Assembly (NCBI GenBank): GCA_043780835.1
Contig: JAYWCB010000015.1
Coordinates: forward strand, 1 to 50,007
DNA length: 50,007 bases
Origin: Minisyncoccota bacterium
Lineage (GTDB): Bacteria > Patescibacteriota > Minisyncoccia > Phycocordibacterales > UBA2100
Direction: 5' to 3'
Part shown: positions 3,757-9,018 of the stretch, piece by piece
How positions within the stretch are numbered: the stretch's first letter is position 1
How the letters are laid out: each line of letters begins with the position of its first letter
The notes under the pieces: generated by a model
Database searches by the model: none
The model's input: the letters and a program-made list of their open reading frames with translations, nothing else
What the model was told of the DNA's origin: nothing
Translations under genes and position numbers: made by a program

Positions 3757-4608
3757 TCAATATTCAGCTCCTTGAATGTTCGACGGGCTGTCTTCCTCGA
3801 GAGCTCCGGAGGCAACGAGTTCCTGCCAGAGCTTTTCCGAGTCATCGAGCACGACGACTTTCTTGAGCGATCCGCGTACAAACGCGCCGTCTTTCACATC
3901 ATGGCATTCCGCATATAAGTCAGCATATGCTGCCGCGATTTGATAGTACGGATGCTTCTTCGGCACACCGCTAGTGGCGCACCGAAGGGCGGATACGTCG
4001 AGCTGCCGGATCTGATCCTCGTGCATGTTCCGCATGAGCGAGTTTCGCGCGCGGTTTACACGTGACTTGATGGTCCCCACCACACATCCAAGCGTACGTG
4101 CCGCTTCGTCGTACTCGAGGCCGAGATATCCGACCGCGATTAACGCGTCGCGCTGTTCTTCCGGAAGCAATGCCATGCACATGAGCAACTTATTGAGGTC
4201 ATGCGCCGACTCCGCTTCACGTGCGAAGATCGTTGTCGATTGCATCTTTTCAATTATCTCGGGCTCAAATGTTGTCTCGCGACGGCGTTTGCGATACTCC
4301 GATCTGAAAATGTTATGGAGAATCGTGAAGAGCCATCCCCCGAGGTTTGAGCCGTCAAAAAGATTGGCATTCTGCATTGCGCGTAAGACTGTTTCCTGCA
4401 CGAGATCTTCAGCGCGGCTCGCATCGTGACACAGCGAGAGCGCATAGCTCTTCATCGATGGCATCTTTCGAAGCACATCGCTCGTCAGTTGAATGCGCTC
4501 TGCTTCGGAGCGCACTGTAGGCACTCGTACGACTGCATCCATGATCTTTCCCCTTTTTCCTACCCTGACAGTAGCTCCGGGTTGCTTTTTTAACAAGCGC
4601 ATACGCAT
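3757..4608 (-). CDS. ECF sigma-70 factor, EcfG/ECF15-like, with C-terminal extension; start uncertain
   Basis: AEDLVQETVLRA, WLFTILHNIFRSEYRKRRRE (region 2); LPEEQRDAL...GTIKSRVNRAR (region 4). Confidence 0.85.
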   Translation of the reverse strand: MRMRLLKKQPGATVRVGKRGKIMDAVVRVPTVRSEAERIQLTSDVLRKMPSMKSYALSLCHDASRAEDLVQETVLRAMQNANLFDGSNLGGWLFTILHNIFRSEYRKRRRETTFEPEIIEKMQSTTIFAREAESAHDLNKLLMCMALLPEEQRDALIAVGYLGLEYDEAARTLGCVVGTIKSRVNRARNSLMRNMHEDQIRQLDVSALRCATSGVPKKHPYYQIAAAYADLYAECHDVKDGAFVRGSLKKVVVLDDSEKLWQELVASGALEEDSPSNIQGAEY

Positions 4609-4687
4609 CGACCGTAAACCTATCTACTTTTTTAGCGACGATTTTCAGCGTAACCCGAAGGGTCCCCTTTGGGGTACTCTTCTACGT

Positions 4688-4954
4688 ATGCACTCTGTGT
4701 ATATTTTGCGAAGTTCGCAACGAGAACGTTACTATATCGGTTCGACACATGACGTCGTTAAAAGATTGCATCAACACAACGCAGGAGCGACCAAATCAAC
4801 TAAGCCATATCGCCTGAGGACACTCATCTATACCGAAGCGTTTCTTGTAAAGACTGACGCGACAAAAAGAGAATGGTATTTGAAACACCCAAAAGGGTAT
4901 CTTGAGAAAAGATCAATAATAGAGCAGTATGGGTCGACAGGAGGGTTCGCATAG
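4688..4954 (+). CDS. Stand-alone GIY-YIG nuclease family protein
   Basis: VYILRS..YYIGST..KRLHQHNAG..KREWYLK; TACTCT 7 nt before the ATG; stop lies inside the tRNA. Confidence 0.85.
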   Translation: MHSVYILRSSQRERYYIGSTHDVVKRLHQHNAGATKSTKPYRLRTLIYTEAFLVKTDATKREWYLKHPKGYLEKRSIIEQYGSTGGFA

Positions 4955-5027
4955 TGGTCTAGTGCACAGTCCTGGAAAGACTGCGTCTCGCAAGGGACCG
5001 AGAGTTCGAATCTCTCACCCTCCGCCA
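4940..5027 (+). tRNA. tRNA-Ser (anticodon GGA)
   Basis: GGAGGGT/ACCCTCC acceptor stem, CAGTC-CTGGAAA-GACTG anticodon arm, long variable arm, GTTCGAATC T-loop, encoded CCA. Confidence 0.95.
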
Positions 5028-5100
5028 TAAGTTTTTAGTATCGGACGTGTGTTGAGGGCTAGAAGGCATCCATATAACATAAATAAGCTATTATAAATGT

Positions 5101-5841
5101 ATGGAATCGCCTGAAAGGAAACCGAGGATTGACCCTCACAAGTCCTCACTAATAAACATTAAAGCAGAAAATTTAAAGGATATAAGAAAGGATTTCGGCT
5201 CCATGCACAGAATTGTGGAGGATCCTGAAGGTCGCCGTCTTTATGGAGGCGAGCACTTTCGTTTCGGGTCCGACCAAATGCTTCTTACGCGCATGCTAAA
5301 AGGTATTGTTAATGTGTCTGACGTCGTGTTTGTTAAAGATGAAAAAGGCGAGGGGAAATTTTATTCCTACGAACTTCCGCTTGAAGATTCATCACCGGAG
5401 TACGCGGAGAGATCAACAGACCTCTACAACGCAGACGCCGGGGTATTTATGCTCACTCATATTTTCCACGACGGAGATCATAAATGGCCCATGGCCAACA
5501 CAAGAGCACAATATCAACGCCACGCGTTTTTTGACTTTGAACATTTTGGTGGTTTTTGGAGAGATTTTTATGCTGGGAGGCCTGAGGAAATTAAGAAAGA
5601 TTTACAGGGCAAAGATACCTATTCAAAACAAATTCTCAGCACAAAGATAGAAGAACTGTTGCGGAGATTTGATGGAGAAGAGGGTTTAAATTTTCTGCAA
5701 TTTATTGTAAGTTCTATTGAAAAAGAAGGCGCCGGTGTCCCAAAAAGTATTCAGGAGGCGCCGGGGGAAGACAAGGTAACCGCTTTCCAAGCTGAACTAA
5801 TCAAGAGAATACAAAAGGTCAAAGCCCAAATTGAGGCTTAA
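5101..5841 (+). CDS. Hypothetical protein, possible HipA/PI3K-like kinase fold
   Basis: AT-rich 246-aa ORF; IFHDGDH-x5-N...FFDFE resembles the catalytic-loop and metal-binding motifs. Confidence 0.6.
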   Translation: MESPERKPRIDPHKSSLINIKAENLKDIRKDFGSMHRIVEDPEGRRLYGGEHFRFGSDQMLLTRMLKGIVNVSDVVFVKDEKGEGKFYSYELPLEDSSPEYAERSTDLYNADAGVFMLTHIFHDGDHKWPMANTRAQYQRHAFFDFEHFGGFWRDFYAGRPEEIKKDLQGKDTYSKQILSTKIEELLRRFDGEEGLNFLQFIVSSIEKEGAGVPKSIQEAPGEDKVTAFQAELIKRIQKVKAQIEA

Positions 5842-5877
5842 CTTCCCTTTAAACAATCATTTTAAACCTCGAAGCTG

Positions 5878-5957
5878 TATCGGGAGGCGAGGCCTCCCGA
5901 TAAAGTTTGAATTCGAGACGGCCCGCCCAAGGTATTTAGTATCGGAGATATGCCGAG
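5878..5957 (+). repeat. Left cassette element A, copy 1
   Basis: 76/80 identical to 7022-7101; begins with the hairpin tatcgggaggc-gag-gcctcccgata. Confidence 0.9.
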
Positions 5958-6023
5958 AGTTGCCCCTGCGATACGCTCCAGGCGGCCTCACAAGCCCACG
6001 CCTGATGGGCTACAATATTGGCA

Positions 6024-6764
6024 ATGTTCAATTTTCTCGCTCAGAACATTTACCTCTTTTACGGCATCGTTCTTCTAACTTCACTTCTCTCGGCATCATT
6101 CGGCGTTGGCAGTTTTATTCTCATACCTCTGGCCGCAATAGTTTTCGGATCAAAGGAAGCAATAGGTATCATCACGATTTATTTTCTTTTTCAAAACATC
6201 AACAAGATTATAGTTTTTCGTAACCACATCGATCGAGATGTCGCCCTTAAGATGGTACTTTGGTCTATCCCCGGCGCTATAGTAGGAAGTTTCGCTTTGA
6301 ACTTCATTCCTATAGGCATATTCAATAAAGTATTGGCTATTTTCATCCTGGCATACCTTGCCAACGATGTATTCGAATTTATTCCGAAGAAACACTCCAG
6401 TGTCAGCGCGATCCCACTGCTCGGGACACTCTATGGATTTATGTCTGGTTTAGTTGGTAGCGGCAATCTGGTAAAAGGGCCTCTTTTCACAAGTATTGGA
6501 CTCCTGAAAGAAAGTTATATTGGAACTTACGCAGTCACATCATTCTTTGTAAACGTTCCTAAAATACTTGTGTATTTGGCGATTGGTGTAATCGTTGGTT
6601 CGACGTTTGTAAAAGCTATTCCGTTTCTTTTCATATCAATCATCGGAACCTATATCGGCAAGCACTTTCTTTCAAAAGTTCACGACAAGGTATTTTACTA
6701 CGCACTCAATATTATCTTCGCAATCTCGGCGGTCGCGCTCCTCTTTGGTCAATCAGTCTCTTAG
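6024..6764 (+). CDS. TauE/SafE (TSUP) family membrane transporter
   Basis: About 8 hydrophobic helices, FGVGSFILIP, GFMSGLVGSG, IGT motifs; TACAAT 7 nt before the ATG. Confidence 0.8.
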   Translation: MFNFLAQNIYLFYGIVLLTSLLSASFGVGSFILIPLAAIVFGSKEAIGIITIYFLFQNINKIIVFRNHIDRDVALKMVLWSIPGAIVGSFALNFIPIGIFNKVLAIFILAYLANDVFEFIPKKHSSVSAIPLLGTLYGFMSGLVGSGNLVKGPLFTSIGLLKESYIGTYAVTSFFVNVPKILVYLAIGVIVGSTFVKAIPFLFISIIGTYIGKHFLSKVHDKVFYYALNIIFAISAVALLFGQSVS

Positions 6765-6772
6765 GAGTAGCT

Positions 6773-6862
6773 TGCTGTCGAGGCATCACTGTGGCGCCAA
6801 GAAAGTCTCCAGAAAATCCTTGTGGGGCTTGAACCAGTGGGGACTAACTGCGGGCCGCCCGC
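6773..6862 (+). repeat. Right cassette element B, copy 1
   Basis: Ungapped 90-bp match to 7461-7550, core ccttgtggggcttgaa...actaactgcggg..gcccgc. Confidence 0.85.
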
Positions 6863-6935
6863 TAAGTCGAGCTAGGTCATCGCGCTCAAGGTGCGAGGAT
6901 ATACACGGCGTTGCCCACGCGACATAATTGTCCTT

Positions 6936-7021
6936 ATGAAAGAAAAGACTGCAAGTGCACTTCGATGGATAGTTGAAATTTTGAATAAGCATCACATTTC
7001 TTACCAAATTGCCGGAGGATT
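6936..7021 (+). pseudogene. 5' fragment of a gene (nucleotidyltransferase-like N-terminus) cut by element A
   Basis: MKEKTASALRWIVEILNKHHISYQIAGGF ends where A2 begins; CATAAT 7 nt before the ATG. Confidence 0.55.
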
Positions 7022-7101
7022 TATCGGGAGGCGGGGCCTCACGATAAAGTTTGAATTCGAGACGGCCCGCCCAAAGTATTTAGTATCGGAGGTATGCCGA
7101 G
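7022..7101 (+). repeat. Left cassette element A, copy 2
   Basis: Direct repeat of 5878-5957, followed by TATAAT at 7106-7111. Confidence 0.9.
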
Positions 7102-7118
7102 GGCTTATAATGAGCAAT

Positions 7119-7451
7119 ATGGTCAATAAAGTTAAAGCAGTTGCTACCTACTGTATTCCGATTGTTGTGATGATCGGATTGATACCCTTCGTGTCGAACG
7201 ACTATCTTTTGATCGCAATCTACATTCTGTTCACCATTGCGCTTCTATTTATCAAGAGCGAGAAAAACGACCTACTCGCCTTCCTGTTTGGCCTTGTGGG
7301 CATAACGATTTCCGAGGCCTTCTTTGTGAGTACAGGAGTCGAGACATTTCTCAGGCATAGTTTGTTTGGTCTCATGCCGATCTGGCTTCCATTACTATGG
7401 GCGTATGCATTCGTAACGATAAAAAGATCACTTCGAATCTTGGATAAGTAA
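7119..7451 (+). CDS. Small four-helix membrane protein (DUF2878-like)
   Basis: Hydrophobic 110 aa with ISEAFFVSTGV and PIWLPLLW; TATAAT 7 nt before the ATG. Confidence 0.7.
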   Translation: MVNKVKAVATYCIPIVVMIGLIPFVSNDYLLIAIYILFTIALLFIKSEKNDLLAFLFGLVGITISEAFFVSTGVETFLRHSLFGLMPIWLPLLWAYAFVTIKRSLRILDK

Positions 7452-7460
7452 TTTGGCCTC

Positions 7461-7550
7461 TGCCGTCGAGGCTCCGGCTTCTCTCCGAAAAAGTTGCTGG
7501 AAAAGCCTTGTGGGGCTTGAAGTGGTGGGTACTAACTGCGGGGTGCCCGC
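7461..7550 (+). repeat. Right cassette element B, copy 2
   Basis: Direct repeat of 6773-6862, 9 nt after the stop codon. Confidence 0.85.
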
Positions 7551-7606
7551 AATGATTCAAAAAATGCGCCACATGGCGCTTTTTTTGATTCATCATTGTG
7601 AGAGAT

Positions 7607-7719
7607 GGTGAGAGATTCGAAGGAGCGGCGGAGGCTCCATTAGCAGATGGAGCGACGCGAGTGTGGTCAGGCGGAGAAAAGTTTTGACGAAAACTTTTTG
7701 AGCGCTTGGCCGAATCTCT
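7607..7719. repeat. Multi-hairpin palindromic intergenic element
   Basis: agagattcg...cgaatctct outer stem, inner gctccat/atggagc and aaaagtttt/aaaactttt stems. Confidence 0.65.
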
Positions 7720-7817
7720 GTCACGCATATTTGCCTGCTAGCAAATCGAGCGACCCGCCTCGCGCCGTCGCGCTCCGTCCTTGCGAAGTTGCGCACTGCT
7801 CACTTCTCACCCTGCGC

Positions 7818-8118: not shown

Positions 8119-9018
8119 CTATACCCGTCCGTTCATTCCCTGCAATGCGGCGATTCGCTCCTCTATCGGCGGGTGTGTTGAAAATAATTTCGCCACAAAC
8201 TGCCCCGCCGCATGCGCACCGAATGGATTTGAAATGAACAGATGTGCGGTCGTGGTGGATGCACGTTCCATCGGCGCTTCGTACGCACCGATTTTTGCGA
8301 GCGCGTGCGCAAGACCCTCCGGATAACGCGTGAGTAGTGCACCGGACGCATCCGCCAGAAATTCTCGACGGCGCGAAATCGCGAGCTGTATCAGTTGTGC
8401 TGCGATCGGTGCAAGAATTGCCGCCACTATCATAGCAATCAGTACGATCGGGCCGCTATTACGATCGCGATCTCCGTTTCCGAAATAGCTCATGCGAATA
8501 GCGATGTTTGCAACCATAGATACCACTCCCACGAGCACCACCGCGACCGTCATCACGAGAATATCGCGATTGCCCACGTGCGAGAGCTCGTGCGCAAGCA
8601 CGCCTTCGAGTTCAGATTTATCCATGATGGAAAGAAGCCCCGTGGTGACTGCAATCACCGCGTGTTTCGCATCGCGCCCTGTTGCAAAAGCGTTTGGCGC
8701 CGGATCATCAATGATATACACGCGAGGTTTCGGCAACCCTGCAGTAATAGAGAGGTTTTCTACGATGCGATGCAATTCCTGATATTGTCGTTCATCCGCG
8801 GGAACCGCACCCACCGACGCGATCGCAATTTTGTCTGAAAACCAATAGGCGCCTATATTCATTACCAGCGATATCGCAACCGCCATGTAGAGAATCGACG
8901 GATTGCCGTAATACTGAGACGCCGCGAACCCTATAAGGGTAATGAGTATGAGAAACACTCCCATCATCACCCAGGTCCTGAATACGTTTTTACTGCGTTC
9001 TGCGTAGAGTGTTGCCAT
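8119..9018 (-). CDS. htpX: Zinc metalloprotease HtpX (M48)
   Basis: PNAFATGR, HELSH, SRRREFLAD, THPP. Confidence 0.95.
   Translation of the reverse strand: MATLYAERSKNVFRTWVMMGVFLILITLIGFAASQYYGNPSILYMAVAISLVMNIGAYWFSDKIAIASVGAVPADERQYQELHRIVENLSITAGLPKPRVYIIDDPAPNAFATGRDAKHAVIAVTTGLLSIMDKSELEGVLAHELSHVGNRDILVMTVAVVLVGVVSMVANIAIRMSYFGNGDRDRNSGPIVLIAMIVAAILAPIAAQLIQLAISRRREFLADASGALLTRYPEGLAHALAKIGAYEAPMERASTTTAHLFISNPFGAHAAGQFVAKLFSTHPPIEERIAALQGMNGRV

Follow-up and report, generated by a model that had tools for sequence, protein, structure and literature searches.

The window analysed here is the entire 50-kb contig C15 (50,007 nt, JAYWCB010000015.1) of genome G000, a 1.25-Mb assembly of 17 contigs from the Patescibacteria. 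Beside a tRNA-Ser(GGA) gene it carries two kinds of short repeat, A and B, which bracket unrelated genes. We propose, with a probability of roughly 60%, that the right part of A (A3') and the whole of B are the two attachment-site halves of a family of serine-recombinase elements residing at tRNA-Ser genes, and that recombinase-less cassettes of this family are stacked in the window. The proposal draws on the anatomy of the repeats, four types of junction, empty sites, an autonomous relative in the same genome and the co-variation of arm type with recombinase clade. Gene gain and loss in the ultra-small genomes of Patescibacteria (candidate phyla radiation, CPR) are poorly understood, and our literature search, largely of records without full texts, found no description of such elements in CPR bacteria. 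The locus offers a concrete and recurrent route of gain, in which small cassettes would insert at the final bases of tRNA-Ser genes. An element with a serine recombinase, apparently of the same family, shares the genome, and closely related strains in neighbouring samples appear to differ exactly at cassette boundaries. Throughout, G000 denotes the host genome, C numbers its contigs, G numbers its genus relatives, and L numbers fetched loci or metagenome contigs.

The two A copies (A1, 5878-5957; A2, 7022-7101) are identical at 76 of 80 positions (95%), and an alignment extended from 5871 and 7015 retains 92% identity over 87 nt; the copies are spaced 1144 nt apart. The B copies (B1, 6773-6862; B2, 7461-7550) align without gaps over 90 nt at 74% identity, and their core (6812-6854) is 88% identical. 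B1 starts 8 nt past the stop codon of a TauE gene (6762-6764) and B2 starts 9 nt past that of a small membrane gene (7449-7451), and the sequence GCGGG-NNN-CCCGC terminates both. A occurs exactly twice in G000, each time on C15, and B occurs three times, the third copy lying at C5:154791-154888. Chance origin of these repeats is excluded. The original prediction, made from the letters of the window, had described the same 76/80 identity, the ungapped 90-nt alignment and the start and end of B, all of which were reproduced. Its 3-nt-loop hairpin at the beginning of A is also present, with a 10-bp stem at 5879-5901 and 7023-7045. Moreover, the cargo genes are unrelated as it had claimed (a TauE/TSUP transporter versus a DUF2878-like membrane protein), and its statement that the window contains no integrase or transposase holds, with no phage-integrase, resolvase or Y1-transposase match on C15. 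In Rfam scans at gathering thresholds and by E-value, A, B and the core of the mini-element described below gave no significant match, and only tRNA/tmRNA models reach threshold.

The ends of the units are defined by their junctions, listed in Table 1 with a slash separating the two halves. The left half is a tRNA-Ser 3' end, B, or the part of A that precedes A3' (A-left), and the right half is either A3' or a native AATGAYTC sequence followed by a terminator. Every combination of halves was found, and similarity always breaks just past a shared CCGC. Only 4-5 nt (CCGC(C)) are common at the junctions and no duplication is present, in line with the lack of target duplication noted in the original prediction. 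In the window, the tRNA-Ser(GGA) 3' end, ...ACCCTCCGC/CA, forms the left half of the integration site, and the shared CCGC lies at 5022-5025. The tRNA-Ser targets carry the anticodons GGA, TGA, ACT, GCT and CGA. By their arrangement, the tRNA/A3', tRNA/AATGAYTC-terminator, B/AATGAYTC and B/A3' junctions would correspond to the pattern expected of attL, attB, attR and attP.

The extent of the insertions is indicated by a structured mini-element of ~125 nt, the arms of which are tRNA-specific. The window copy carries TTCGAATCTCTCACC (T-loop plus acceptor) of tRNA-Ser(GGA), which lies 2.6 kb away, and the C5 copy carries TTCAAATCCCTCTCTCT of tRNA-Ser(CGA), located 33 kb upstream. At C10, at C11 and in G019, the mini-element sits directly behind its tRNA. 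The tRNA-matched arms therefore identify 5028-7550 (2.5 kb) and C5:121439-154888 (33.4 kb) as insertions, and the window mini-element marks the former end of the tRNA before the 2.5-kb insertion. Hybrid attL/attR-type junctions flank both insertions, and matching empty attB-type sites, which the original prediction had proposed to look for, exist as tRNA/AATGAYTC at C10, C11, G019 and G005. In these four places the sequence found at 7551-7603 of the window stands directly 3' of tRNA-Ser. The earlier view of the repeats as ends of mobile, cargo-swapping, non-autonomous units piling up beside a tRNA gene is supported.

The C5 insertion, which starts with A3' after tRNA-Ser(CGA) and ends with B, encodes a 440-aa large serine recombinase (LSR) composed of Resolvase, Recombinase and Zn_ribbon_recom domains. 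It is the kind of autonomous copy that the original prediction suggested seeking, a 33.4-kb element with A3' and B at its ends. HNH and DUF4209 proteins are encoded near its LSR end, and a ParB_N-methylase, a helix-turn-helix (HTH) protein and a weak terminase-like protein near its B end. PF00239 has no match on C15, so the window units are at most non-autonomous derivatives. Full-length LSR orthologues (53-88% identity) are present in about 20 of 115 genus genomes. Of 20 orthologue loci compared, 16 have a tRNA gene (Ser, Gln, Arg or Trp) no more than 3.6 kb away, the 3' end of which points towards the recombinase gene; one of the remaining four has a tRNA facing away, and three have no tRNA, one of these at a contig end. 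An A3'-type arm directly follows the tRNA in G000 and in all four orthologues of at least 74% identity (G116, G095, G101 and G052). Among the orthologues at 66-69% identity, four of five have another arm, AGGAACGTGAGACGG..., and the Gln and Arg groups have others again; arm type tracks LSR clade. In addition, LSR and B lie within one element in G000 (C5), G082 and G065, and the G082 element (7.8 kb) is followed by a further B/A3' junction and another cassette.

Serine recombinases use a short shared core and leave no duplication, and the att sites of LSR elements are short (~40-50 bp) and imperfectly symmetric around a central dinucleotide. The GTACTAA and TTAGTAT arms are placed symmetrically around the shared CCGC, and the 4-5 shared nucleotides together with these arms make serine recombinases a better fit than tyrosine integrases, although the symmetry is weak. 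RNAalifold applied to 11 B copies gives -6 kcal/mol with 0 of 12 pairs compensatory, thus no supported fold, which fits a site acting at the DNA level. Decay of a whole tRNA-Ser was considered as the origin of B because of an anticodon-loop-like CTGGAAA/CCAGAAA and a T-loop-like GTACTAAC; this candidate was rejected, as only the 3' end aligns convincingly and B has no tRNA-model match.

The 80-nt A had been taken for one unit, which is not borne out. It is composed of a palindrome, a truncated B-type arm (A-left) and A3', and only its last ~30 nt (A3') form the recurrent left end. The hairpin of both copies is ATCGGGAGGC-GAG-GCCTCCCGAT, a 10-bp stem with a 3-nt loop and one mismatch in A2. The identical 23-nt palindrome is found by itself at a number of unrelated intergenic positions of G104, as well as in G099 and G043. 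Pieces of A were found in 11 of the 115 other genus genomes, and in none of the 115 do hairpin and A3' occur together in one match. A3' (motif of 30-35 nt, consensus AAGTATTTAGTATCGGAGGTATGCCGAGGGC) recurs in this search in G078 (three copies within 2 kb), G102, G058, G091, G101, G089 and G001, and several copies in G082, G078 and G101 run into an imperfect hairpin (ATCGGAG...CTCCGAT). The 22 nt of A-left before the crossover, GTTTGAATTCGAGACGGCCCGC, align without gaps with the tRNA-Ser end GTTCGAATCTCTCACCCTCCGC and the B end GTACTAACTGCGGACGGCCCGC, so that A and B are related, and B's GTACTAA forms a short imperfect inverted repeat with TTAGTAT of A3'. B-variants with an A-left-like 3' end are present in G106, in G079 and in the metagenome run X2 described below. 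The suggestion that A leads into a -10 box stands as far as a TAGTAT hexamer is present; a scan of the region finds four promoter-like sites versus 4.9±2.4 in shuffled sequences, none of them in A, which leaves the proposed built-in promoter without support. As a side observation, the palindrome has seven BLAST matches in G104, where it is a multi-copy intergenic repeat independent of A, and three Y1_Tnp genes of G000, of the type associated with repetitive extragenic palindromic (REP) sequences, could relate to it.

From left to right, the array reads tRNA/A3', a gene for a 246-aa protein, the palindrome with A-left/A3', the TauE gene, B1, a candidate decayed A3', a nucleotidyltransferase fragment, the palindrome with A-left/A3', the DUF2878-like gene, and B2 followed by the native flank (Table 1). 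Read in this way, 5028-7550 is most simply a row of about four cassettes, none with a recombinase gene, that fills the 2.5 kb between tRNA-Ser(GGA) and the flank it originally had. The A3' and B ends around a segment lacking a recombinase gene fit a recombinase-less att-flanked element, in the sense of cis-mobilizable elements (CIMEs) or pseudo-SCC (staphylococcal cassette chromosome) elements. The cassette 3 fragment is identical at 11 of 21 positions to the N-terminus of a 168-aa protein of G122, which itself matches PF10706. Homologues of the cassette 1 protein, at no more than 37% identity, occur in 8 of the 115 genus genomes; among nine matches to its gene, two are close to tRNAs and none is accompanied by A3' or B, which is uninformative.

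Table 1 Features of the array, junction types, recombinase and mini-element copies (window positions unless a contig or genome is named).
Feature	Location	Strand	Basis or remark
tRNA-Ser(GGA)	4940-5027	+	ARAGORN; Rfam tRNA, 53 bits
A3' copy 0, TAAGTTTTTAGTATCGGACGTGTGTTGAGGGCT	5028-5060	+	tRNA/A3' (attL-type) junction, left end of 2.5-kb insertion; repeat family D1
Cassette 1 cargo, 246-aa protein	5101-5841	+	Open reading frame; no Pfam/NCBIfam match
REP-like 23-nt palindrome, first module of A1	5879-5901	+	Outside attachment site; identical 23-mer alone elsewhere
A1 proper	5902-5961	+	A-left 5902-5929 (ends GGCCCGCCCA) and A3' 5930-5961; attP-like junction, cassettes 1/2
Cassette 2 cargo, TauE/SafE (TSUP) membrane transporter	6018-6764	+	PF01925, E 2.8e-25
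B1, right-end arm of cassette 2, ends ACTAACTGCGGGCCGCCCGC	6767-6862	+	Profile nhmmer, E 3.9e-22
Candidate decayed A3' (TAAGT..TAG.T.ATCG)	6863-6890	+	By eye; low confidence
Cassette 3 remnant, 29-codon 5' nucleotidyltransferase fragment (PF10706-like)	6936-7022	+	Cut at left edge of A2
REP-like palindrome, first module of A2	7023-7045	+	Repeat comparison
A2 proper	7046-7105	+	A-left 7046-7073 and A3' 7074-7105; attP-like junction, cassettes 3/4
Cassette 4 cargo, 113-aa DUF2878-like membrane protein	7110-7451	+	PF11086, E 2.4e-6
B2, right-end arm closing both cassette 4 and the entire insertion	7453-7550	+	B/AATGATTC attR-type junction at 7550/7551
Former downstream flank of tRNA, AATGATTC and bidirectional terminator hairpin 7566-7579	7551-7603	+	Terminator scan
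Structured mini-element	7604-7727	+	Arms 7608-7622 (inverted) and 7708-7722 (direct) copy tRNA-Ser(GGA) 3' end
tRNA/A3' junction	5027/5028; C5:121438; G001; G089; G116; G101; metagenome contig L179		
tRNA/AATGAYTC-terminator (empty form)	C10; C11; G019; G005		
B/AATGAYTC junction	7550/7551; C5:154888; metagenome contig L180		
B/A3' junction	G078; G082; L167; G101		B-variant in G101
440-aa LSR	C5:124524-125846		3 kb from tRNA; PF00239 3.3e-19, PF07508 2.9e-14, PF13408 3.1e-10
Mini-element copies in G000	7551-7727 (core 7604-7727); C10:73761-73930; C11:3331-3499		
Further mini-element copies in G000	C12:~121180-121300; C1:~171060-171190; C5:154889-155061		

According to the proposed mechanism, each cassette would start with A3' and end with an arm resembling a tRNA 3' end, either a full B of ~95 nt or a truncated A-left. 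A3' would be the P' half and B the P half of the family's attachment site. Elements would recombine at the last bases of tRNA-Ser genes, inside the shared CCGC, and integration would leave tRNA/A3' on the left and B/flank on the right. B/A3'-type junctions would then separate stacked units, and the repeat originally called A would be such a junction plus an unrelated REP-like hairpin. The enzyme is most likely an LSR, of which G000 encodes one on C5 within the 33.4-kb element with the same ends, and the window cassettes, if still moving, would be mobilised in trans. We infer catalysis by the LSR, the exact crossover dinucleotide, the growth of the array and any present mobility of the window cassettes from the sequence patterns. 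A more elaborate version, which we regard as rather unlikely, sees tRNA-Ser as the docking site of an integron-like capture system run by an LSR in trans: one-gene B/A3' circles would be inserted, stacked and exchanged between strains, and the tRNA-mimicking B end would allow an occupied site to be used again.

Several points weigh against serine-recombinase attachment sites. An LSR half-site needs only ~25 bp, which leaves the conservation of B over ~95 nt unexplained. The dyad symmetry is weak: an ungapped self-complement scan of the B/A3' junction of G078 places the best centre elsewhere, and only the outer arms of 6-8 bp match. Canonical LSRs recombine attP with attB only, so that growth of the array through B/A3' junctions needs an extra assumption. 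Three cassette-bearing genomes have no close LSR orthologue, the best being 39% identical in G001 and 32% in G078, with none at E<=1e-20 in G102. To the right of B the sequence varies among genomes (G119, G079, G065 and G101), which may reflect either a loosely specified right target half or a decayed A3'. The difference between the A copies (95% identical) and the B copies (74%) implies at least one local duplication or recombination event, and the 87-nt A segment has probably been duplicated or recombined recently as part of the history of the array. Finally, of the B-A junctions that the original prediction expected in circular form, B/A3' junctions do exist in assemblies, and no excised or circular form of the window locus is present in the contigs of the four metagenome runs compared below.

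The length of B is also what a tyrosine recombinase would explain, since long conserved attP arms, such as one of ~95 nt, are typical of tyrosine integrases and not of LSR sites. The ends would then be moved by the single Xer-like enzyme of the host, in the manner of integrative mobile elements exploiting Xer (IMEX), or by an integrase since lost, and B would represent an extended P arm containing arm-type binding sites. G000 has one PF00589 gene (C9:10082-10615), and tRNA 3' ends are classic targets of tyrosine integrases (PMC4383910). We consider this improbable: that gene, the sole PF00589 match in the genome, lies outside both the window and the 33-kb element of C5, only 4-5 nt are common at the junctions, arm type co-varies with LSR clade, and the LSR gene shares an element with B in three genomes. 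The original prediction had drawn another comparison, with IS200/IS605- or IS91-like HUH transposons, by which the units would be non-autonomous single-strand transposons with terminal hairpins, inserting 3' of a fixed CCGC without duplication. Insertion does always follow ...CCGC and leaves no duplication, B ends in a small hairpin (4-5 bp), several A3' copies of G082, G078 and G101 run into an imperfect one, and G000 has three Y1_Tnp genes. The three PF01797 loci (two on C12, one at C5:173.5 kb), however, have no A or B nearby, all copies of A (two) and B (three) being on C15 and at C5:154.8 kb. Moreover, the conspicuous hairpin of A is a palindrome that also occurs by itself, no fold is conserved in B, insertion is confined to tRNA 3' ends next to LSR genes, and the A3'/B-ended element of G000 carries an LSR. 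An HUH mechanism consequently finds no support and appears very improbable.

The repeats might also not be mobile at all, if A and B were a shared 5' leader and a 3' untranslated region spread by tandem duplication, with the coding part replaced later. The 95% identity of A1 and A2 at a distance of 1144 nt, the start of B 8-9 nt past stop codons and the terminators after some B copies would agree with such a history. It is nevertheless contradicted by the lack of a promoter-like site in A and of covarying structure in B, by the position of A3' directly behind tRNA genes, by B/A3' junctions with cargo on either strand (G001, G078 and G101), and by the existence of empty sites and of a 33-kb version, and we hold it to be extremely improbable.

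Cassettes with other cargo are found well beyond the window. B is detected by BLAST in 8 of the 115 genus genomes, and a profile built from 11 copies and applied only to the loci retrieved for comparison adds G001, G089, G102 and G101; across the order, 5 of 400 further genomes contain pieces. Cassettes of one to three genes with different cargo are located at tRNA-Ser in no fewer than seven other genomes or contigs. The cassette of G001 encodes a 262-aa membrane protein on the opposite strand, that of G089 a 240-aa protein and that of G102 a 172-aa protein, and the cassettes of G101 encode a racemase-like protein followed by a 122-aa protein. G078 holds four cassettes, one with an ArsR/SRPBCC/membrane trio, and contigs L179/L183 and L168 contribute further cassettes with other cargo at tRNA-Ser. 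A pattern scan of metagenomes returned 20 stretches, of which 10 are true B copies (8 distinct sequences) and 10 proved unrelated after inspection of their flanks. Viral contigs gave zero matches to the B pattern and to the B/A3' pattern. In four metagenome contigs (L172, L174, L181 and L182), the B pattern was matched through a different conserved sequence (...GGGGACCTTGTGGTC...AGAGATCGTACTAACTGC...), apparently a further small RNA-like family without relation to B.

Variation between related populations was compared in assembled contigs of four runs from one study. In the run from which the genome probably came, contigs are interrupted at A1 and A2, as repeats would cause. Run X2, a sister sample, contains contigs identical to 4800-5027 and to 7545-7800, which diverge exactly at both boundaries; the divergent sequence on the right is an A-left-like arm, and no contig of this run covers 5112-7503. 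These contigs, shallow (depth 3-4) and unbridged, suggest that run X2 holds a near-identical strain with a different cassette content. In runs X3 and X4, contact with the window is limited to the tRNA end and 232 nt of the first cassette gene. A reported joint from 5025 to 7580 with 28 letters between was examined as a possible excision and rejected, as it corresponds to the paralogous tRNA-Ser(TGA) locus on C10.

Among known systems, the SCCmec/pseudo-SCC composite islands of staphylococci are built by the large serine recombinases CcrAB/CcrC at the 3' end of rlmH/orfX. The window array resembles them in the proposed use of an LSR at a single fixed position of the chromosome, where the 3' end of a conserved gene lies, and in its tandem stacks with attachment-site repeats between units, some of which are recombinase-less and would depend on an enzyme in trans. 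Unlike in SCCmec, the target is the 3' end of tRNA-Ser genes with five anticodons and not a protein gene, the units are far smaller (0.5-1 kb, one gene), and the right arm is conserved over ~95 nt with a tRNA-like end, in a host with a 1.25-Mb genome of Patescibacteria type. The CIMEs of streptococci, which are formed by accretion, are likewise flanked by att sites, lack integration genes, and owe their origin or movement to site-specific accretion with an autonomous element that occupies the same site, whereas they depend on tyrosine integrases, target a protein gene and are usually larger. Integron cassettes share the arrays of mostly single, unrelated genes with one recombination site each, the position beside a fixed primary site, and a recombinase encoded outside the cassette. 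In contrast to integrons, no IntI-type tyrosine recombinase lies beside the array (PF00589 being absent from C15), B lacks an attC-like conserved hairpin while its 11 copies conserve sequence blocks, the primary site is a tRNA gene, and cargo stands on either strand. The tycheposons of Prochlorococcus are cargo-carrying integrative elements at tRNA genes, where newer integrations push older ones inward and islands contain scattered degenerate elements and partial tRNAs; of 937 tycheposons, 910 encode a tyrosine recombinase and the others an LSR (bioRxiv 10.1101/2020.12.28.424599). Most tycheposons differ from the present elements in their tyrosine recombinases and replication modules, and the present elements differ in their bipartite A3'/B ends, which share ~4-5 nt and are not partial-tRNA direct repeats, and in their stacked units, mostly single genes. 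The integron seems a looser analogy than pseudo-SCC elements, CIMEs and tycheposon remnants. If the recombinase is confirmed, the locus would provide a compact, defined pair of attP (B/A3') and attB (tRNA-Ser end) from an uncultivated lineage and an example of cassette stacking at a tRNA gene driven by a serine recombinase.

The mini-element, which is conserved in two phyla and in each case corresponds to its host tRNA, is perhaps of wider interest. It lies behind tRNA or tmRNA genes, on the strand of the tRNA and after a terminator-like hairpin, and its closing helix pairs an inverted with a direct copy of the last ~17-20 nt of the host tRNA. It is present in 27 of the 115 genus genomes, often in multiple copies and at contig ends, and is missing behind orthologous tRNA-Ser(GGA) genes in several genomes. 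The tRNA strand folds better in 27 of 27 copies, by a mean of 12.3 kcal/mol, with G·U pairs on that strand, and RNAalifold yields for the 27 copies a three-way junction of 34 pairs, 25 of them with compensatory changes. An exact 26-base pattern retrieves 67 copies in 65 stretches of species-representative genomes, the record titles of which name Patescibacteria lineages and metagenome-assembled genomes of Bdellovibrionaceae/Oligoflexia (Bdellovibrionota). A tRNA or tmRNA on the same strand ends less than 400 nt upstream of 49 of the 67 copies, with at least 14 amino-acid specificities, and most of the remaining copies are located at the edge of their locus. The downstream arm is in many cases a repeat of the final ~20 nt of the tRNA in question. 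Protein clustering near the mini-element reveals no recurrent recombinase. Candidate identities of the mini-element are a non-coding mobile element copying its target, a folded attachment site in single-stranded DNA analogous to that of CTX phage, and a tRNA-trailer RNA. The only recurrent protein family in its neighbourhood, at 7 of 65 loci (L108 and six of L102-L166), is a nucleotidyltransferase that by eye resembles the CCA-adding enzyme, located 64-1283 nt downstream on the same strand in six of them, which may reflect synteny or a regulatory link.

A few further observations concern the surroundings of the array. ARAGORN reports tRNA-Ser(ACT) in several genomes (G000, C11:3243-3330; L075, 3994-4082, from G101; and L149), G000 also having a tRNA-Ser(GCT); an encoded serine tRNA with A34 is unusual. 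A small gene with a GIY-YIG nuclease domain (4493-4954; PF01541, E 6.5e-14) ends within the first bases of tRNA-Ser(GGA). By eye, G012 shows a clearly similar C-terminus at the equivalent place, and in G011 a coding end lies there. An orthologue of HtpX (window 8119-9018; 76% identity) is found on contig C58 of G078 (loci L033/L022) upstream of tRNA-Ser(GGA) on the same strand, whereas the HtpX gene of G000 stands downstream of the array and on the opposite strand; relative to HtpX, the two genomes thus appear to carry the segment of tRNA plus array in opposite orientations. Sigma factors flanking the arrays of G000 and G078 were considered as orthologues and dropped, as they are only 27% identical. 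A short repeat at 7716-7787, after the mini-element, has BLAST matches in many relatives, among them G013, G027, G010, G003, G037 and G033.

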